A DNA stretch of 64,000 nucleotides from an uncultured Aeromonadales bacterium (lineage in GTDB: Bacteria; Pseudomonadota; Gammaproteobacteria; Enterobacterales; Succinivibrionaceae), in contig CACZLZ010000008.1 of the NCBI GenBank assembly GCA_902782145.1, positions 23,327-87,326 of the forward strand, written 5' to 3'. The translations under genes and the position numbers were made by a program. Shown here one piece after another: positions 2,690 through 59,976 of this stretch. How positions within the stretch are numbered: position 1 is the first letter of the stretch; each line of letters begins with the position of its first letter. The notes beneath the pieces were generated by a model, which was not told the origin of the DNA, searched no databases, and was given only the letters and a program-made list of their open reading frames with translations.

Positions 2690-4816
2690 TCAGTTCATCC
2701 CCATGGCCTCCCTTGCCAGGGAGACAGCATGATCCACCAGTTCCCGGTGAGGGCCGAAATCAAAACTGTCAACATGGGAGATCAGGTATTTTGAAGCAGC
2801 CTCCAGCCCCCTGAGGTGCCTAACAAGAAGGCTGTGTGCCAGTTCCACCGCCCTATTCTCGTCCTCGAAATAATACAGGACATGATTCACATAGAGAAGA
2901 AAGCTCTCATAGGACCGGAGCACGCACAATCCCGGGACGAATCCCTGGAGGATCAGACTCTTGAGCTCGTTCAACTGACATTCCTGGCGCAGGACAAACT
3001 CAGCGCGTCCCGCGGGCCTTGTGTCCCACTCAGCCAGGAGGGAGGCGAAAAAGCCGTCAAGCCTGTCTGCCCGCACCAGCTGCTTCAGCCTGCCAACATC
3101 AGGGAACTTAAGTGAGAACTGCCGGTAAATCCGGTTCCTCAGATCCTTCTTGTCTGCCTTGGCAAAATGAAAAAGGCCAATCTCAGCAAACCTGCGGGGA
3201 TCGGCGCCACTGATCCGGGCACCGTTGCTGCAGTTGAAAAACCGGGTTTGTTTTCTGTATTTGGCAATGCACATTTCCATCTGGGAGATGGAGCTCTTGA
3301 ACAGGGCATTGGTCCGGACCTCGGGCACAAAATTGCCCGCCATGGTCTCATGCATGATGTCCGTGGGCAGATTTTTGTACTGATCCTGCAGTTCATGGTT
3401 TTCATCAAAATAGAAACTGTGCTGGGAGTGTCCCTGATCCGAGGCACTGCCGTTGTCGGTTCCCAGCAGGTAAATGGTTTTAAAGCCCATGGCCGCCGTG
3501 AGTTCCAAGCCGAAATTGGCAACTAGAGGATTGGTCCACTCAAGAATACGGACACCGCTGAACACATCGGTACAGCAGCTGCTCAGGAGAAGCATGGTGA
3601 ACTCAGCGTCCTTGGGCACGATGATGCTGTGCCGGAACAGCTGCAGAACCCGGGTCTGGACAACATCAAGGGCAAAACAAACGGTCCGATCAAAGAACTC
3701 CCGGTGCTCAGTGATGGCCACAAGGCTGTCATACACCGGAGGGATCCGCTCCACGGCAACATAAATGTCAGCGCAGATCCCGCACCGGCACAATGCGGAA
3801 TAGGCGGTACCACAGGCAATGATCACACAACGATCCTGGTACTTCCGGAGAAGTTCAATGTCATCGTCCAGGGAGGGACCGTTGCCAACCACCACCGCCG
3901 GCACCGCTGCCAGACTGCCGGAAAGAACAGTCTTCCGCATCAGGGGGATCCCGGCAAGAAGGCTGGAGCAACTGTGATTGAAACCAAAAAGGTAGTCGTC
4001 AATAAACCCGTTGGCCAGGGACATGGTGGGAAAATTCCGCTCCCAGATCTCCTTGAACCGATCGATGGTCCGGTCACGGTAGGAGATCAGCAGTTTGAAG
4101 GGCAACATCAGCCCGACATTCAGGATAAAGAACTCCCGCAGATCGGAGAAGAACTCCTGGTGTTCGCTGGAGAGGTTCAGATAAATGCTGATCCCCCTGC
4201 CAGCAGCATATTCCAGAAGGGAGCTGTAATCAAAACAGCACAGGGACCAGTAGAACAGATCCGGGCTGGGCTCCACAACATACAGCGACACCGGGGTCAT
4301 TTTTTCATAAATGTAGCCCAGCTGAAAGCCCAGACCCAATCCGAACATGAACACCAGGGGCACTGACTCCAGATGCCTCACGTCAGAGGGACCTGAACAG
4401 ATCCTTCTCATATCCTCCAGGATCATCTGGTTCTGAAAATACTCATATTGGTAGAACTTGTTGTCAGCATTCAGCGTGTCATTAAACTCAGCCTTGATCA
4501 TTCCCTTGGACATGTCATCCAGGGAGTCAGCCAGGGCACGGGAGCGGGCAAAGGAATTCCCCCCGTAGACCAGCGTCCCGCTGGCAGTGTCAAGAAGATC
4601 CGGCTCGCCGTTCTCCAGGCACGTGAGAATGTATCTATCAGTTGGCCGGTAGTGCTCAAACCTCTCACAGATCTGGGGCATGAACTTCCTGAAGGCATTC
4701 AGGTTCTCCCGCAGTTTATGGGGGACAATGCTGTACAGGGCCTCCTGGGCCCTTTTGGCCTCATCCGAACTGAGCCTGCCTAACAGATCACTGGTGTTTG
4801 CTGAATTACCATCCAT
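2690..4816 (-). CDS. motility-associated factor (Maf, DUF115-type) flagellin glycosyltransferase
   Basis: Core VVVGNGPSLDDDIELLRKY...VIIACGTAYSAL matches the Maf/MptE-like DUF115 motif, and the gene sits between flagellin and flgL. Start was chosen at the internal ATG 4816 (MDGNSANT, with AGGAA upstream). The ORF is open up to 4915. Confidence 0.75.
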   Translation of the reverse strand: MDGNSANTSDLLGRLSSDEAKRAQEALYSIVPHKLRENLNAFRKFMPQICERFEHYRPTDRYILTCLENGEPDLLDTASGTLVYGGNSFARSRALADSLDDMSKGMIKAEFNDTLNADNKFYQYEYFQNQMILEDMRRICSGPSDVRHLESVPLVFMFGLGLGFQLGYIYEKMTPVSLYVVEPSPDLFYWSLCCFDYSSLLEYAAGRGISIYLNLSSEHQEFFSDLREFFILNVGLMLPFKLLISYRDRTIDRFKEIWERNFPTMSLANGFIDDYLFGFNHSCSSLLAGIPLMRKTVLSGSLAAVPAVVVGNGPSLDDDIELLRKYQDRCVIIACGTAYSALCRCGICADIYVAVERIPPVYDSLVAITEHREFFDRTVCFALDVVQTRVLQLFRHSIIVPKDAEFTMLLLSSCCTDVFSGVRILEWTNPLVANFGLELTAAMGFKTIYLLGTDNGSASDQGHSQHSFYFDENHELQDQYKNLPTDIMHETMAGNFVPEVRTNALFKSSISQMEMCIAKYRKQTRFFNCSNGARISGADPRRFAEIGLFHFAKADKKDLRNRIYRQFSLKFPDVGRLKQLVRADRLDGFFASLLAEWDTRPAGRAEFVLRQECQLNELKSLILQGFVPGLCVLRSYESFLLYVNHVLYYFEDENRAVELAHSLLVRHLRGLEAASKYLISHVDSFDFGPHRELVDHAVSLAREAMGMN

Positions 4817-5215
4817 CGTGCCTAATTCCTGAACTGCCAGGCCGAACCAGGCCTGCTGTCTGAGAAACAAAACAAAACGGTATGCCTGCCCTGCCCGCCG
4901 CACCCGTTTCATCACCGGAGTTCCAGCAGAGTGGGCTCAGGGTAAAGGACAGATCGCCTCCTGCCTGATACTATCACACAGTTCCCCTGGGATGCTCAGC
5001 CTGCGTGATACTGATATGACGGACCGCAAGATCACGGCGTCAGGTGATGAAGTGGGATGTGGCGGCGGGATGGAAGAAAGGATGGAGAGGATATGGGACA
5101 GGTTGGAGGACGGGGACGCCTGCCCTCCGCCGCCCTCCCCCGGCAGCCGTCACCGTCAGACGGCGAGTTCCTCAGGATGGTCAGATCCTCCCCGGCTCAT
5201 GCTCCCGGCACCGCC

Positions 5216-6460
5216 TCAGGAGATGTAGTCAAACAGGGAGGTTCCGGTCACATAGTTGAAGGACTTCATGGACATCTGGAGAATGGACTGCACCTTGGCC
5301 AGATCAGAGGTGGTCTCATAAAGATCCGCCTCGGAAATGGTGGACTTGGCATCCTTCTTCACATCCCCGATGGCCTGGTTGGAGTCAATCACCGTGTCCA
5401 GGATATTCTGCCGGCCGCCGATGGCTCCCAGGGTGGTGTTGATGCTGCTCTGGGTGTTGGTGATGTTGATCTCTGCCTTGGCCAGGGCATATTCGCGATC
5501 CACTGGGGAAACATAGTTGGCGTCAGCCGGATTGGTGCTACCCCTCAGGACGCTGATGACATCAGTCAGTGCATTCAGGACGTTGTCGTTAGCAGGACTT
5601 TCCATTCCCACAAGGAAGGAGGCACCCGCAGTCATCTCGCTGGTGACGATCTTCAGTCCGTGGTAAACCAGGGTACCGTCATCCGACGGTGTCACCTGGG
5701 TGGCAGCACCGCTGGGATCGGTGACGGTGAAGCCAGTGGCAGTACGCTGAACGGAGATGAACTGATCGGCGGTGCTCCCGGCAGGGAAGAACTGCTCATA
5801 CCAGGCACTGAACACATCGTAGTTGTCATAGGAGACATGGGGCTCGGGGCTGGGCAGGGGGTTGGTGCCGTTCTGGGTGATATAGGCATTCCTGGCCGTG
5901 GGCACATCCTCAAAAATGGTGCCGGGATCCGACACGGCGATGGACACCGAGGAGGATGCATTGATCATCCTCTGCCCCTGGTCGCCGTTGTAGACATATC
6001 TGCCGGAGCCGTCCAGGCTGAAGGCCTCATTCCGCCCCAAGGAGCCAGAGAAAATGTACTCCCCCTCAGCGGTCCTGGTGTTCATCAGGCCCTGCAGATA
6101 ATCCCTGATCTCCTCCAGTTCCTCCGCCACGGCGGCAAACTCAGTATCGGAATAGGAGGCGTTGATGGCAGAGGATATGAGGACCTGGGCCCGGTCCAGT
6201 CGGTCATGGGCAGCACTGAGGCTGGTCTCCTCCAGGTTCAGGGAGTCCACAGCATAGCCGGAGTTCACCGTGTACTGCTCATACATGGAGATCTCCTTCT
6301 CCAGGCGCATGGTGGCAGCGAAGTCCGCCGGGGCGTCACCGGCAGAGCGGAATTTAAGCCCGGTGTTGTAACTGTCGCTGACCCGGTCCATGCGGGAGTT
6401 GAGATCCTGGATGTACCTGGTGCTCTTGTGATATGACGTGGTGGTGGCTATGCGTGTCAT
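5216..6460 (-). CDS. flgL: flagellar hook-associated protein 3 FlgL
   Basis: MTRIATTTSYHKSTRYIQDLNSRMDRV...GLKFRSAGDAPADFA is a flagellin-like N-terminus. The gene lies immediately downstream of flgK. Confidence 0.9.
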   Translation of the reverse strand: MTRIATTTSYHKSTRYIQDLNSRMDRVSDSYNTGLKFRSAGDAPADFAATMRLEKEISMYEQYTVNSGYAVDSLNLEETSLSAAHDRLDRAQVLISSAINASYSDTEFAAVAEELEEIRDYLQGLMNTRTAEGEYIFSGSLGRNEAFSLDGSGRYVYNGDQGQRMINASSSVSIAVSDPGTIFEDVPTARNAYITQNGTNPLPSPEPHVSYDNYDVFSAWYEQFFPAGSTADQFISVQRTATGFTVTDPSGAATQVTPSDDGTLVYHGLKIVTSEMTAGASFLVGMESPANDNVLNALTDVISVLRGSTNPADANYVSPVDREYALAKAEINITNTQSSINTTLGAIGGRQNILDTVIDSNQAIGDVKKDAKSTISEADLYETTSDLAKVQSILQMSMKSFNYVTGTSLFDYIS

Positions 6461-28431: not shown

Positions 28432-28704
28432 GAACTGCTCCGTGCCCTAGGCACGTGGGGCTCCGCTCAGGCTCGGAAACTCCGCTCAGACCTCTGTTCC
28501 TTCGTGTGATACGGCAGGATCGAAGCCCTGGGCGGTCACTGCCACTGGAAGGTAACTGATCCGGCATCCTCTCCCCAGGAGCTTCTTCAGGCAGTGCTTT
28601 TATTCTCACCCGCTAACTTGCGCCCGCCTCATATCTCCGCAATGCAGGAGGGAGGCCAAAACGAGACCTCTCCCCGCAGATCACCCGCACCTGATCCTGC
28701 TCAT

Positions 28705-29107
28705 CACGCAAAAACCTCATTTTCAGCCGCCAACAGCCCGGCAGTGACTGCACATACCAGCCTTATGTCCTGCAATATCTGCATTTTTTGCCACTCAGAA
28801 CGTTGCAATAACTGCACTTTTTAACGCTCACGGCACTGCAAAATCTGCACTTTTTGGCTGCAGTGCCCAGAATACCGCACTGATCCTGACCAGATCCAGC
28901 ACAACTCCATGCCTTCAGGAACTCCGCAAGCCCCATTTCCCCTTTCTCCTGAACAGAAAAGCTGGCAACAGCAGTTTAGTCAAATTCGCAAAACCTGCAC
29001 TTTTTGCTGCACAGCAACCTGCAAAACCACCATTTTCAGCCCCATTGGATCATGCAAAACCTGCACTTTTCGCTCCTTTCAGCTATGCAAAAACCGCACC
29101 TTCAGAC
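28705..29107. repeat. array of at least 8 copies of a palindromic 21-nt motif TGCAAAAyCTGCACTTTTTGC, phased at 33 bp
   Basis: Copies begin at 28708, 28771, 28804, 28837, 28987, 29020, 29053 and 29086. The arms GCAAAA / TTTTGC are inverted. Eroded copies lie between the two blocks. Confidence 0.85.
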
Positions 29108-29185
29108 AAAAAGCCGATCCAGCCTGAGTTTTTTCTGTTCTAGTGTGTGATAATCCATGCAGTCATCTGCTCCCGGAGGGACACA

Positions 29186-30553
29186 TTGATATTCAAAAGA
29201 AAGGTCTATGACCAACTCCTGGAATGGAAGGAGAAATTCTCCCGAAGATATGCTGTCATGCTGGAAGGCCCCAGACGGGTTGGCAAGTCAACCATTGCCG
29301 AAGAATTCGCCCGGAGACATTTCCGCTCATACATCAGGATCGACTTTGCCGACATAACCCCGGAAAGGATTAAAGCCATTTTCAGCAGTCTGGCGACGCC
29401 GGATCTGCTGTTCCTCCAACTCCAGGCTGACACCGGGATCCAACTGTATCCAGGGGAGTCAGTTATCATATTTGACGAGATCCAGCGGGCACCGCCTGTC
29501 CGTCAGGCCATCAAATACCTGGTGGCTGACGGCAGGTACAGTTACATTGAGACTGGCTCCCTGATAAGCATCCGCCAAAACATCAGGAACATAGTGATCC
29601 CGTCAGAAGAATATTTCATCAGCGTCAACCCCCTTGATTTCGAGGAATTCCTCCTGGCCACCGGCAACCAGGCCTACGGCATTCTCCGGGAGCTTTACCA
29701 CCGCAACAAGCCCGTTGGCAGTCAGACAAACACCAAGCTCATGCGGGATCTGCGCCTTTATATGGCTGTCGGCGGCATGCCCCAGGCCGTAGAGTCCTAC
29801 ATTGGCAAGAACAACTTCGTTGAAATTGACCGGATCAAACGATCAATACTTGACCTGTACGAGCAGGATTTCTACCGCATCGACAAATCCGGGATCCTGG
29901 CGAAAATGTTCACCTCCATCCCCAGCCAGCTTGGCCATAACAAGAAGAGATTCGTGCTGTCCCAGGCCTCCGGGAAACGCACCACAGCAAAAGATCTGGA
30001 AAGGTTTTCCGAACTGGTGGACTCCAAAACCGTCCAGGTCTCCTACGACACAGCCGATCCCGGAATTGCCCTGGGCTCCACGGCAAGACCAGACTCCTAC
30101 AAAGTCTATCTCAGTGACACCGGCCTTTTCACCTCCCTGCTTTTCAGCTCAGCCGATCAGACCAGCAGCCAGATCTATAGCAAACTCCTGAGCGACAAAC
30201 TGAGCGCGAACCTCGGTTACCTCTATGAGAACGCCGCCGCACAGATGATCACTGCCAGCGGCAACAAGCTGTTCCATCACACATGGAAGAAGGAAGGCAG
30301 CACCCATCACCACGAAATCGATTTTCTGATCCAAGCCGGGACCAAGATAGTGCCCATCGAGATCAAATCCTCCAGCATCAACAGCCACAGTTCCATCACA
30401 GCTTTCAGCCTCAAATACCCCGGCAGGATCCTGAGCCAGTACCTGTTCTCCCAAAAAGATGTGAGCCACAGGGAGACACTCCTGTGCAAACCACTGTGGA
30501 TGCTGCCCTTTGTCCTGGAGGAACTGGGACAGGCAGAAATAACTGGCCGGTAA
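29186..30553 (+). CDS. AAA+ ATPase with DUF4143-type C-terminal domain (COG1373-like)
   Basis: Walker A LEGPRRVGKST and Walker B VIIFDEIQ. The C-terminal EIDFLI...IPIEIKSS is a restriction-endonuclease-like motif typical of this family. Start was chosen at TTG 29186, 5 nt after GGAGGG. Confidence 0.75.
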   Translation: MIFKRKVYDQLLEWKEKFSRRYAVMLEGPRRVGKSTIAEEFARRHFRSYIRIDFADITPERIKAIFSSLATPDLLFLQLQADTGIQLYPGESVIIFDEIQRAPPVRQAIKYLVADGRYSYIETGSLISIRQNIRNIVIPSEEYFISVNPLDFEEFLLATGNQAYGILRELYHRNKPVGSQTNTKLMRDLRLYMAVGGMPQAVESYIGKNNFVEIDRIKRSILDLYEQDFYRIDKSGILAKMFTSIPSQLGHNKKRFVLSQASGKRTTAKDLERFSELVDSKTVQVSYDTADPGIALGSTARPDSYKVYLSDTGLFTSLLFSSADQTSSQIYSKLLSDKLSANLGYLYENAAAQMITASGNKLFHHTWKKEGSTHHHEIDFLIQAGTKIVPIEIKSSSINSHSSITAFSLKYPGRILSQYLFSQKDVSHRETLLCKPLWMLPFVLEELGQAEITGR

Positions 30554-30631
30554 AACCCGGATAGAAGAACCGCGGCAGCGGGACACCCCGGAATTTGAAT
30601 ATTTTGTCAGAAGCAGACTGGGTTGCTGAAC

Positions 30632-31924
30632 ATGGCACAGATAGAAGGTTTGAGAATTCAGAACTACAAGGCGCTGAAGGATATAACACTGGGAAAGTTA
30701 TGGAACACTCAGGACAGGCCCCTGACCCGGCTGACCGCGGTGATTGGCCATAACGGCACCGGGAAAAGCTCACTCTTTGATGCCTTTGGTTTTATCGCCG
30801 ACTGCCTGAAAATGGGAGTGGAAGAGGCCTGTGACAACCGGGGAGGCTTTGAAACGATTTACTCCAAAGGGGTGGATTTGGCGGAGGGGATGACTTTTAC
30901 GGTTTCTTACCGGGAGAGTTCTGATGCTGATGACAGCCCCATAACGTATGAGTTTGCCATTAAAGCCGCTGCCGACAGATGGCCTTATGTGGCTTCAGAA
31001 AGGCTGCGGCAAAAAAGGAAGGGATCTACTGAGGGCGACTGTCCTCAGTCATTTATGATCATCAATAACGGCACCGGAGTGGTCTGGAAAGGCGGATCTG
31101 AAGGCAGGCTGAACAATGAAGATGAGGGTTCTGTGTTAAACCTCATTAACCAAATCGAAGCGGGACAAAAGACAGAAGAGACAAATGAAACCGAAGTTGT
31201 GAGGCTGGAAGACAACCGGCACCTTGCGGTTACTACCCTCGGCTCATTAAAACAGCATCCAAGGATCACCGAATTCAGAAAATTTATTGAAAGCTGGTAT
31301 TTAAGTTATTTTACCCCCGACTCTGCCCGTTCGCTGCCGGCTACCGGCTGTCAGAAGCACCTTGACAGTCATGGCGGCAATCTCGCAAATGTGGTTCAGT
31401 ACATGCAAAGGGAGCACGGGAACCAATTTAAGAAGGTGCTAAGCAGGATCTCCGCCAAAATTCCCGGCATAGAAAAGATAGACACCCGGGTAACACCAGA
31501 CGGCAGGCTGCTGCTTGAATTTTATGCAGAGGGATTTGCGGAACCCTTCTTTGCCCAGCAGATGTCGGACGGCACACTGAAATACTTCACCTATCTTCTG
31601 CTTCTGGAAGATCCTGAGCCTCATTCACTGGTCTGCATTGAGGAGCCTGAGAACGGTCTCTACCCCCAGCTGCTGGAAGAACTGGGCCAAGAATTCCGCA
31701 ATTATGCATCAGCCAGAACAGCAGACTCCCAGGTGTTTATCACGACCCATCAGCCCTTTTTGCTTAACGCATTCAATACTGATGAGGTGTGGATCCTGGA
31801 AAAGCAGCCGGACGGCTTTGCCCGCATTTCCCGTGCCAGCAATAATGAACTGGCAAGACAAATGGCAGATGCAGGACTTCCCCTGGGGGAACTGTGGTAC
31901 AGCGATTATCTCAGCGGGAAATGA
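30632..31924 (+). CDS. ABC/SMC-type AAA ATPase (AAA_21/AAA_15-like), partner of the downstream Toprim-like gene
   Basis: IQNYKALKD...VIGHNGTGKSSLFDAF (Walker A), MSDGTLKYFTYLLLL (signature-like), LVCIEEPENGLYPQLL (Walker B) and FITTHQPFLL (H-loop). Confidence 0.8.
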   Translation: MAQIEGLRIQNYKALKDITLGKLWNTQDRPLTRLTAVIGHNGTGKSSLFDAFGFIADCLKMGVEEACDNRGGFETIYSKGVDLAEGMTFTVSYRESSDADDSPITYEFAIKAAADRWPYVASERLRQKRKGSTEGDCPQSFMIINNGTGVVWKGGSEGRLNNEDEGSVLNLINQIEAGQKTEETNETEVVRLEDNRHLAVTTLGSLKQHPRITEFRKFIESWYLSYFTPDSARSLPATGCQKHLDSHGGNLANVVQYMQREHGNQFKKVLSRISAKIPGIEKIDTRVTPDGRLLLEFYAEGFAEPFFAQQMSDGTLKYFTYLLLLEDPEPHSLVCIEEPENGLYPQLLEELGQEFRNYASARTADSQVFITTHQPFLLNAFNTDEVWILEKQPDGFARISRASNNELARQMADAGLPLGELWYSDYLSGK

Positions 31925-32879
31925 ATGCACTTTGAAATCCTGGTTGAGGATCTTTCGGGCAAGATAATGCTTGCCAGCCTGATCCCCATGATCATAGGAG
32001 CTGATCCTGCCAATACCTTCAGGATCATCCATTACCGGGGATGCGGATCCCTGCCATCAGATCTGAAAGTGAGCCAGGCCGCCGACAAACGGGCACTGCT
32101 GAATCAGCTGCCAAGGCTGCTCATTGGCTACAGCCGGGCATTTCAGAATGCGGTCAGTGACAATGCGGTCATTGTCGTATGCGATCTGGACACCCGGGAC
32201 AAAGACACCTTTCTGGCCAGGTTAAATCAGATGCGGGATGAGGCGGCGGCAGCGACGTCCGTTCCCCTGACCGTCCGCTTCTGCCTGGCCATTGAAGAAG
32301 GAGAAGCCTGGCTTCTGGGCGACTGGGAGGCGGTAAAACAGGCTCTTTGCAAAAACAAGTTGGAATTATCCAGGATTATATATTCTAAATATCAAAAACA
32401 TATAGCCATGAATATTTATTTGCTGGAGATCGGATTTAGGTATGTGCCATCATGTCGTCATGCTAACACATTGATTTCTGGGGGCTTTTGACTGTGTGTG
32501 TGCTTACGCAGCTTCTAAAACTGAAGGCTCATTTCGTGTCATAGCCCATGGGGCTGGCCAACATCGTTCCAACTGGAATTTGCAAAGACCCGTAAAACAG
32601 GCATATCCCCAGGCCAAAGCGAGTGTTTTCCGTAAATACCAAAACGATGCCGTCTGCGGCACCTGGGAAATGCTGGCTGACATGATCTGCCCGGGTGGTT
32701 CAGCGAAACTGAAAGCCGAGGGACATAGTTTACTCGGCCAGGCAAAATGCGAATGGGCTGAAAAGATCAGCCCACTCATGGATATTTCCCGCAACAAGTC
32801 CCCAAGTTTCAACGTCTTCAAAAGCGCGCTGGAAAGTCTCCTGCACCTGCCCCATCATGAGCCGGAACATATACCCTGA
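31925..32879 (+). pseudogene. Toprim-like DUF4276-type gene split by a MITE insertion
   Basis: The two ORFs 31925..32491 and 32496..32879 join in frame (...EAVKQ|AYPQAKASV...) once 32341..32599 is removed. Conserved EILVED, CDLDTRD and AIEEGEAWLLGD motifs are present. The ATG directly follows the TGA of the ATPase gene. Confidence 0.7.
32341..32591. mobile_element. 251-bp MITE (non-autonomous element with ISL3-like termini)
   Basis: Left end is GGCTCTTTGCAAAAACAAGTTGGAA. The reverse complement of the right end is GGGTCTTTGCAAATTCCAGTTGGAA, about 21/25 identical. It is flanked by a perfect 8-bp direct repeat GTAAAACA (32333-32340 and 32592-32599). The interior is AT-rich with no ORF. Confidence 0.75.
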
Positions 32880-32969
32880 AACATCCCGGCCGGTGGGCTG
32901 ACATCGAAGCCTGCGCCGGGCTGCCACCAGTAGCCGGCAAAGAGCCATCCAATCTGACAGCCAGCCTGC

Positions 32970-59200: not shown

Positions 59201-59730
59201 ACGGAGCTGATGCCAAAGTCAATGATGATCACCGACTGACCGTCATCTGCCAGCATCAGGTTGGAGGGCTTGATATCCTTGTGGATGATCCCCCGGGAAT
59301 GGAGATCTGCCAGACCCGAGTTCACTGAGGGGATGATGATCCTCTTCATCTCCTCCAGGGTGAAGGTCCGGCCGCTGAGGCTGCCGTTTTTGAAATAAGG
59401 CATGACGGTCACCGGCAGATCCTTTTCCCTGCCAAAGTCCGTCACCGGGGCCACATAGGGGCTCTGGATCTCCGTCAGCTGCTCCAGAACCTCCATCTTG
59501 ATGGCGTCGCTGCGGCGGTAGATCTTGGCCACATACTCCCGGCCGCCCTCATCCTGGCAGACATACAGATCCGCCTCCCCCGAGGACACCTCCATCCGGC
59601 GCAGGATCCGGTACCGGCCCTCCAGGAGGGTCCTGCCCGCCGGTGAAACGTCTTCAGTGGGGGCAACGGAGGAGCGCACCCGGGTGCGGGAGGGGGATTT
59701 GCCGCGGTTGATCCTGGTGGTGTAGGACAT
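56293..59730 (-). CDS. Ser/Thr protein kinase fused to two blocks of DUF285/BspA-type repeats, with a C-terminal hydrophobic tail
   Basis: Hanks kinase motifs YVAKIY (Lys), IIHKDIKPSNLML, IIDFGIS and YSAPE. Later there are repeats such as FDTSRVTQMRSMFEGCTSLSSVPDFDTS. The last 22 aa, ALKVAGGLFLLMVLTSMCSHH, are hydrophobic. Start was chosen at ATG 59730. Confidence 0.8.
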   Translation of the reverse strand: MSYTTRINRGKSPSRTRVRSSVAPTEDVSPAGRTLLEGRYRILRRMEVSSGEADLYVCQDEGGREYVAKIYRRSDAIKMEVLEQLTEIQSPYVAPVTDFGREKDLPVTVMPYFKNGSLSGRTFTLEEMKRIIIPSVNSGLADLHSRGIIHKDIKPSNLMLADDGQSVIIIDFGISSVLSQDVSLIRTTTGLSLAYSAPETFSGTYLRESDYYSLGITLYEIFAGCHPFRLSQGDDMAAVASLMRISFPDSFPRELRDLILGLTYKDLTYRNDHDNPNRRWGAEEVTAWLAGRKLRVPGEELSSSDVRGAAGRAGSAAASGSGGGTAAPAPASGEFSRPYKLRRQEFRTLGELTDALGRHWEDGKKHVGRGLLFQFLSAEGEQDLASSVKDCEEAGVSDPAYFRLLLELSGDSGSIYWHGRRFGDLREFAADLLCRILEPAPGAGEQIPGGQGRRAADQIPDLEELYSAAELLCREDSTRLAVLGEIRRFNSLYGGSASRSALVNLCLFLWDDDPALLADPRLFPGEDLATFADLSRRLAGLDPASGEFMAFFLKHRMLLSACRHIYVPGIARVFDDLFQKLPGAVHSSRFTVSYDDLASALTEEDLLQAGIFTVKGLIRSFSQVQEIMKSLQLSMLRFSELPRDFFAGYEGEEMDFAISLAPEITDLTGLFAGCPKLRTVPLFDTSRIRKMDRMFRDCPALTQIPAFSTASVRSMDAMFAGCSLLESVPEFQVDEDVSVRGIVANCGKLVLANSLPAFLRKRPRGEIFHEVAFGQQENKEDPEGITGGPEIIDDREFRERTGSPGGDIHVTVDFGTSSGSAAFATSSSSSSTSSSWPGGRGSSGSAFSASHWTATTTISPAAGFAGSAEEPEPAAAGAGLDTSDPAARIEAQGQGTAVINRNQRVLDLMHDDELLYSANPGLVRDLVSVAENFGTLRISHNRAVPLFNRMIRELTGIYFTIVLGGSVTSLKGMFAHCYRLTDVPFFDTSRIWDMTAMFEDCRSLSTVPKFDTSRVTQMRSMFEGCTSLSSVPDFDTSRAEFTDRMFFGCRSLLRFPSLSRNSLRSDTDMYEGCFLADPAESGVYVFGEPGNRTYVRQGDIREGMVLPGYSRPEGTSSSSGCLVGALKVAGGLFLLMVLTSMCSHH

Positions 59731-59976
59731 ATCTTCAGCCTCATATGGTGCTTTGGTGTCAGGTCGCGCCTGATCTGCATGAATGTTAGCACCCGGGAGG
59801 CGGGAATTGCTTGACCTCACTCAAAAATGACGGGGACGGGATCCTGGGGCCCCGGACAGGAAGCTGCCGGCGACGCCCCCGGATCCTGTCGGCGTCTTAC
59901 CCGGATCTTGCCGCCAGAGAGGGGCGAGGAGGAAGCAGGATCGGAAACGGGATCGGAGTCGGCGCCAAGCAGGATC

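Follow-up and report, generated by a model that had tools for sequence, protein, structure and literature searches.

The interrupted gene pair

The window, by which we mean the whole 64,000-nucleotide stretch of DNA that was analysed, carries three neighbouring genes on the + strand that are the subject of this report: a PDC-S01 candidate defence gene (AAA_14 + DUF4143; 29147–30553), which provides context outside the element described below, an intact gene for a 433-amino-acid ABC-type ATPase (AAA_21/AAA_15; 30623–31924) and a DUF4276/Toprim-like gene that is split in two. Both Pfam and PADLOC identify the ATPase, which matches the HEC-01A model PDLC04182 from residue 4 to residue 431 (E = 6.6e-166) and Pfam AAA_21 (5.3e-32). 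Its stop codon is followed immediately by the ATG (31925) of the split gene, HEC-01B. The 5' part of HEC-01B (codons 1–138; 31925–32340, + strand) encodes N-terminal acidic residues and a CDLD (DxD) motif, and the 3' part (codons 139–231 of the restored frame; 32600–32879, + strand) is cut off from the start codon. Between them lies a 251-bp element. As the sequence stands, the HEC-01B frame runs through 138 native codons and 50 codons supplied by the element before reaching a stop at 32491.

Removal of the element together with one copy of the 8-bp repeat that flanks it fuses the two open reading frames in frame, as an earlier note made from the letters alone had proposed, with GDWEAVKQ joined directly to AYPQAKASVFRKYQ. 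The resulting 231-amino-acid protein matches the PADLOC HEC-01B model PDLC04205 over residues 1–218 (E = 7.5e-82) and scores 34.4 bits against Pfam DUF4276, for which the cut-off is 30.2. Taken alone, the N-terminal fragment scores under the DUF4276 threshold and the C-terminal fragment (32600–32879) has no Pfam match. Uninterrupted homologues of 229 and 215 amino acids are encoded directly after the ATPase gene in two members of the same genus of Succinivibrionaceae, G006 and G002; they are colinear with the joined frame at 63–65% identity and show no gap at the junction. The G006 orthologue of HEC-01A is 428 amino acids long. Thus, both components of HEC-01 are present at this locus: HEC-01A and, adjacent to it, HEC-01B, which as the joined frame retains the glutamate and DxD motifs.

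DUF4276 belongs to the Toprim superfamily and has a conserved glutamate as well as a DxD motif (PMC12065111). In a three-sequence alignment of HEC-01B proteins, E4/E8 and D87-L-D89 are invariant and all are encoded upstream of the insertion; following the assignment of PMC12065111, E4/E8 and D87/D89 are predicted to be the Toprim catalytic residues. The 93 residues downstream of the insertion also hold many invariant positions in this alignment. Because these residues are lost, the truncated HEC-01B product is most likely inactive and the module most likely without an effector, even though the product keeps the predicted catalytic glutamate and DxD residues, which is a point against loss of function.

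Structure of the 251-bp element

The element occupies 32341–32591 (no strand assigned) and is bounded by a target site duplication (TSD), GTAAAACA, at 32333–32340 on the left and 32592–32599 on the right. The two copies are identical (8/8 bp), and one of them is kept in contigs with an empty site. The ends of the element pair as 25-nt terminal inverted repeats (TIRs) at 21 of 25 positions (84%), GGCTCTTTGCAAAAACAAGTTGGAA at 32341–32365 (+) being compared with the reverse complement of the right end, GGGTCTTTGCAAATTCCAGTTGGAA, at 32567–32591 (−). The direct repeat is really 11 nt long (GTAAAACAGGC), as the 3 nt past the right TSD are the same as the first three bases of the element. This introduces a formal junction ambiguity of 3 nt, despite which the empty-site sequence is the same; insertions of the element at other sites, and those of its partner insertion sequence (IS), support a TSD length of 8 bp. 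When the whole window was scanned for a perfect 8-bp direct repeat immediately flanking an inverted repeat of at least 19/25, 32341–32591 was the sole match. This configuration appeared in none of 200 dinucleotide-type shuffles of the window, the best of which reached 18/25.

At 41% GC, the element stands apart from its 1-kb flanks (56%) and from the genome (58%). It has no Pfam match, its open reading frames are read-through frames only, Rfam gave no match at E ≤ 1, and a search of its sequence for a sigma-70-like promoter was negative. Its RNA folds modestly better than shuffled sequences (z = −2.5), a difference that is driven by TIR pairing. An intron or intein reading was considered and rejected. 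What, then, should the element be called? The earlier note had described a miniature inverted-repeat element (MITE) with imperfect TIRs and a perfect 8-bp duplication, and its coordinates and sequences are borne out. The name MITE is justified by structure, as the element is shorter than 500 bp, non-coding and equipped with TIRs and a TSD, but not by copy number, since a BLAST-level search of its own genome returned the element alone. A stricter name, for reasons given below, is ‘non-autonomous ISL3-type element’.

Empty sites in other strains

Public sequencing runs offer a view of the same locus in close relatives. In runs X2–X8, contigs about 99% identical to this genome at the locus skip exactly 259 bp (32333–32591), passing from 32332 directly to 32592. 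These seven runs represent seven samples and seven studies, covering cattle, sheep, a bioreactor and one metatranscriptome; X2 comes from the same study as X1, which is probably the source sample of this genome. Among X1–X8, only X1 carries the insertion at HEC-01B, with the proviso that the public-run data are contigs rather than reads, so that X1 could hide a minority allele with an empty site. The 251 bp are thus an insertion and did not originally belong to the gene, a conclusion supported by precisely the empty sites that would be anticipated in related strains.

The metatranscriptome, X8, is from sheep rumen and contributes a 968-nt contig corresponding to window positions 31564–32790, which extends from the 3' end of the ATPase gene into most of an intact DUF4276 gene. 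This contig suggests that HEC-01A and HEC-01B of the intact allele are co-transcribed, with DNA carry-over as a possible source of the signal.

Other insertion sites of the element

The element is also found elsewhere. The strain in X2 has one assembled copy, located within a 12.8-kb contig whose flanks map to C5:50628–50657 and C5:50655–50684 of this genome. At C5:50650–50657, X2 contains 259 additional bp (251 + 8) with the octamer GAAAATCC on both sides, and the site is empty in this genome, X1, X3 and X5. The gene hit in X2 (C5:49988–51793; locus L068, 1389–3194; 52% GC) encodes a 601-amino-acid AAA_14 P-loop NTPase that weakly resembles PDC-S01 models. In this species, the two mapped insertions consequently both fall in accessory NTPase-type loci. 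Three further runs, X24, X25 and X26, show the element beside other, very A/T-rich flanks that are missing from this genome; for X24 we infer ATAATTAT as the duplicated target. The alignments of X2 and X24 each report a single mismatch to the element, which most likely lies in flank bases carried past the element end, so that the copies would be identical and the TSDs perfect. Altogether, the element has at least five distinct insertion sites, every one of them an A/T-rich octamer.

The insertion at HEC-01B is private to one sample, is flanked by a perfect TSD and has apparently identical copies at other sites in other samples. These three observations support the proposal of the earlier note that the event is recent, and we regard it as very recent and strain-specific. 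Only one element site is seen per strain, a pattern that copy-out transposition does not readily explain unless a donor copy went unseen, alleles were exchanged by recombination or a copy was precisely lost; it counts as a point against the model proposed below.

A resident, multi-copy ISL3 insertion sequence

A pattern search of this genome with the TIR core of the element returned seven further occurrences (control, 0), and a close variant of the pattern returned three more. Most of these termini sit at contig ends. They fall into two types. About 137 nt inwards of the type GGGTCTTTGCAAAATCTAGTTGGGA an open reading frame starts with MYDTITFPSQL, and the type GGCTCTTTATAAAAACAAGTTGGAA resembles the end found downstream of the ISL3 transposase in a congener metagenome-assembled genome and in a metagenome contig. 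A protein-database search with this ISL3 transposase retrieved P0002, an intact protein of 502 amino acids with PF01610 and HTH_Tnp_ISL3 domains, whose N-terminus is identical to the contig-end reading frame of this genome at 47 of 48 residues. P0002 is encoded on contig L095 within a complete element of 1,722 bp, in which the left and right inverted repeats (IRL and IRR) correspond exactly to the two types of terminus. The idea that the termini belonged to two elements, ‘family A’ and ‘family B’, was rejected on this basis: they are IRL and IRR of one IS. The contig ends of this genome are 97–100% identical to the ends of the L095 IS over 94–282 bp.

On the IRL side, ends of the IS lie at C5:219312–219462, C9:75049–75330, C12:1–144 and 59662–59810, and C40:23371–23469; on the IRR side, they lie at C62:1–98 and C79:1–94 and 5607–5704. 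By way of shared 8-bp duplications, C9 can be joined to C62 and C12 to C79 across copies of the IS. Each pair of junctions, C9 with C62 (AGTATTTT) and C12 with C79 (GAAATAAT), reconstructs an IS insertion with an 8-bp TSD. A clean TSD was looked for at the IS copies of L076 and L095 and none was seen, for which reason the evidence on the TSD of the IS is drawn from the junction pairs of this genome. Similarly, contigs of X1 and X2 were compared on the genome's own contig-end junction, the L076 IS copy being too divergent.

In X1, a 1,643-bp contig runs from the IRL junction into the interior of the IS at a depth of 140, compared with 15–18 for chromosomal contigs, which puts the resident ISL3 at about eight copies in this sample, with the transposase reading frame taken from the L095 copy. 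The IS copy at C9 is missing in X2, X3 and X5; contigs of these runs pass uninterrupted through a single AGTATTTT. Given this depth and this polymorphism, the ISL3 element is resident, multi-copy and active in this genome. The assembly consists of 93 contigs, the smallest of 2.3 kb, and the interior of the IS is missing from it because repeats were collapsed and short contigs dropped. The resident ISL3 also explains several of the contig breaks of this assembly.

A PF01610 search of the genome's own assembly found just a remnant on C48 (20023–20213). It corresponds to residues ~170–235 of the 502-amino-acid protein and runs off the contig end, with the DDE domain truncated after ~46 positions. 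Two solo IRL-end fragments of the resident ISL3 (~95–107 bp), at C19:33730–33836 and C43:12630–12728, are followed by unrelated sequence. Metagenome contig L078 and runs X1 and X5 share the C19 arrangement, flank included, so that this fragment looks like an old, fixed remnant.

Relationship of the element to ISL3 insertion sequences

The left end of the element matches the resident IRR at 23 of 25 positions (L095; C62 and C79 of this genome) and the right end matches the resident IRL at 22 of 25 (23/26). Crossed pairings of the element ends with IRL and IRR give 20–21/25, below these end-specific matches. Together with the 8-bp TSD, the match of its GGCTCTT-type TIRs to an ISL3 that encodes a transposase places the element among ISL3-type sequences, and a PF01610 transposase is available in the same cell, as indicated by the 47/48 match to P0002 and by the X1 contig that enters the IS interior. 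The assignment to ISL3, which the earlier note had suggested, is therefore upheld, with a resident PF01610 IS that has matching ends, 8-bp TSDs and multiple copies. The notion of a full-length parent IS stood only in part: a partner ISL3 with a transposase exists, but no similarity was detected between the interior of the element and the resident IS. A deletion derivative of the resident IS was rejected on the grounds of this unrelated interior and of the 17-point gap in GC (41% versus 58%). We propose instead that the resident 1,722-bp ISL3 is the likely mobilizer of the element in trans, and not its parent.

Related short elements of 192–262 bp, about 12 in number, are present in G005, a congener of ~42% GC. 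Such relatives share 30–100 nt at each end and are numerous in G005 and in rumen metagenomes. Among genome contigs, a scan with the IRR pattern returned G005 only. An ISL3 represented by L076 and G005:C84 has an IRR, ~85–100 bp from the stop codon of the ISL3 transposase, that matches the left end of the element at 24 of 25 positions, and a weak sub-terminal similarity reaches ~55 nt. The ISL3 at G005:C84 (L064, ~4300–5965) is broken, an IS256/Mutator-type transposase gene replacing its N-terminal half, and the ~1,990-bp IS256/Mutator + ISL3 composite recurs in two metagenome contigs (L075 and L088). The ISL3 copies of G001, G003 and G004 were set aside as partners: they are intact but have unrelated ends and belong to a different subgroup. 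The element family may have arisen in lower-GC relatives, from which horizontal acquisition would have followed.

A model for the insertion and its alternatives

Based on these observations, we propose a model to rationalize the state of the locus. In a rumen Succinivibrionaceae bacterium of ~58% GC, a 251-bp non-autonomous element with ISL3-type ends entered HEC-01B at codon 138/139 and duplicated its target GTAAAACA. HEC-01B is thereby cut after 138 native residues, to be continued by 50 element-encoded residues and a stop, and loses its conserved C-terminal 93 residues; the HEC-01 module most likely loses its effector, while the ATPase gene is intact. Lacking a transposase of its own, the element would most likely have been moved in trans by the resident multi-copy ISL3, whose 1,722 bp encode a 502-amino-acid DDE_Tnp_ISL3 transposase between an IRL and an IRR like the element ends, and which generates 8-bp duplications at A/T-rich targets. 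As a whole, namely a very recent and strain-specific insertion of an ISL3-type element in HEC-01B, a module most likely without effector and the resident IS as the most likely mobilizer, we hold this account with high confidence. It agrees with the suggestion of the earlier note that the effector had been inactivated and the ATPase spared: the joined frame is a full-length HEC-01B, the C-terminal fragment by itself has no match and HEC-01A is matched end to end. The insertion with its TSD, the empty sites, the movement of the element between sites, and the presence, copy number and activity of the IS are demonstrated by the data; the loss of function and the mobilization in trans are the parts of the model that we infer.

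The assignment of the mobilizer is the point at which the model meets its most serious competitor. The TIRs of the element agree with those of the resident IS at 22–23 of 25 positions and not perfectly, and the IRR of the G005/L076 type is closer (24/25) and accompanied by the ~55 nt of sub-terminal similarity. A different ISL3 transposase, supplied by a lower-GC congener or by a passing plasmid or phage, might thus have moved a horizontally acquired element. The composition of the element (41% GC), which resembles that of G005 (~42%), the home of the ~12 related elements, would fit such an origin, as would the very A/T-rich flanks, missing from this genome, that surround the copies in X24–X26. 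On the other side, another ISL3 transposase was not found in this genome, in which the C48 remnant is the sole PF01610 match, and the L076 and G005 copies of ISL3 are themselves pseudogenes. Moreover, movement of the element between two sites on the chromosome is seen among strains of this species that are ~99% identical, both of which contain the resident IS in an active state. We therefore consider a foreign mobilizer unlikely, albeit a competitor to be taken seriously.

More speculatively, our own account could be extended to a low-GC foreign MITE, cross-mobilized by the resident ISL3 through ends that are ~90% identical, that acts as a frequent and possibly reversible switch of defence-island genes in rumen populations. 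Both mapped targets, HEC-01B and the gene of the 601-amino-acid AAA_14 NTPase, are P-loop NTPase-associated accessory genes with a GC content below that of the genome. We rate this extension as quite improbable.

A chimeric join of element reads into the HEC-01 locus, arising during assembly or binning, might be suspected in a metagenome-type assembly of 93 contigs that is visibly disturbed by repeats. However, an independent assembly of X1 (Logan) contains both junctions in a 24.5-kb contig and is 100% identical to this genome over the 1.8-kb region that includes them, a chimera would not yield a perfect TSD together with restoration of the reading frame, and the element is single-copy in the assembly of the sample, which leaves no repeat to mis-join; an artefact is accordingly very hard to credit. 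The opposite polarity, in which the 259 bp are ancestral and have been precisely deleted elsewhere between the 8-bp (11-bp) repeats, is effectively refuted, for although short direct repeats can mediate deletion and the 11-nt GTAAAACAGGC would permit one, it is the shorter form that encodes a full-length, family-matching protein and that is carried by two further species of the genus and by seven of eight samples. In addition, the TIRs of the segment match an IS family, and unrelated loci contain it between 8-bp duplications of their own.

Comparison with known systems and significance

How does the insertion of an ISL3-type element in HEC-01B compare with events described elsewhere? Gene-disrupting MITEs mobilized by ISL3, with GGCTCTT-type ends and 8-nt duplications, are already known: in Microcystis aeruginosa PCC 7806, a 187-nt MITE of this kind lies in the sbp gene (PMC11448079). 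Like the element reported here, it is short and non-coding, has imperfect GGCTCTT-type TIRs that match ISL3 copies of the same genome, is flanked by 8-nt duplications, disrupts a gene and is polymorphic between close strains. The present element differs in its length (251 bp), its single copy, its sequence and the phylum of its host; in addition, its ends are specific to the resident IRR and IRL, and its base composition is unlike that of the host and of the IS. The ISL3 family (ISfinder; PF01610, DDE_Tnp_ISL3) is characterized by common GGCTCTT termini, 8-bp duplications and A/T-rich targets. The partner IS, with its 1,722 bp and one reading frame of 502 codons for HTH_Tnp_ISL3 and DDE_Tnp_ISL3 domains, is a typical member, whereas the element has no transposase gene and is a non-autonomous passenger. 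It is well known that MITEs insert into genes, and the present case does not imply a new mechanism; what is documented here is an active ISL3/MITE pair in an uncultured rumen Succinivibrionaceae.

What are the implications for HEC-01? In PADLOC, the system pairs an ABC-type ATPase with a small protein of the DUF4276/Toprim type that is encoded directly after it (Payne et al., bioRxiv 10.1101/2024.01.29.577857). The order is the same here and both proteins match the HEC-01A and HEC-01B models very strongly and over their full length, HEC-01B as the joined frame. Two features set this locus apart from the reference: the B gene is interrupted, and the pair adjoins a PDC-S01 candidate and is not inside an Hma system. 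Broader relatives are found among pairs of an ABC ATPase and a Toprim protein, such as PARIS AriA/AriB and OLD/Gabija. Since the HEC-01 that was assayed conferred no protection in E. coli against the phages tested (bioRxiv 10.1101/2024.01.29.577857), a role of this ABC ATPase and TOPRIM pair in defence is a candidate function only. The allele described above would be a natural knock-out of HEC-01B in a widespread defence candidate. The intact allele exists in many other rumen samples and is apparently transcribed in one, which provides a ready contrast for tests of HEC-01 function.

Two further observations concern the surroundings of the gene pair. The block formed by PDC-S01, HEC-01A and HEC-01B (window 28432–32969) has a GC content of 50–56%, against 61–62% in the flanking chemoreceptor and membrane-protein genes, a difference that fits an acquired defence islet; in the congener G002, the HEC-01 pair is found in a different context, adjoining a gene for a LolC/E-like permease. 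Finally, a small indel-rich patch is located just 3' of the HEC-01B stop codon (32905–32930), in the intergenic spacer ahead of a convergent gene for a 630-amino-acid membrane protein, where other strains have 6–7 additional bases, for example GCCTGC after 32908.
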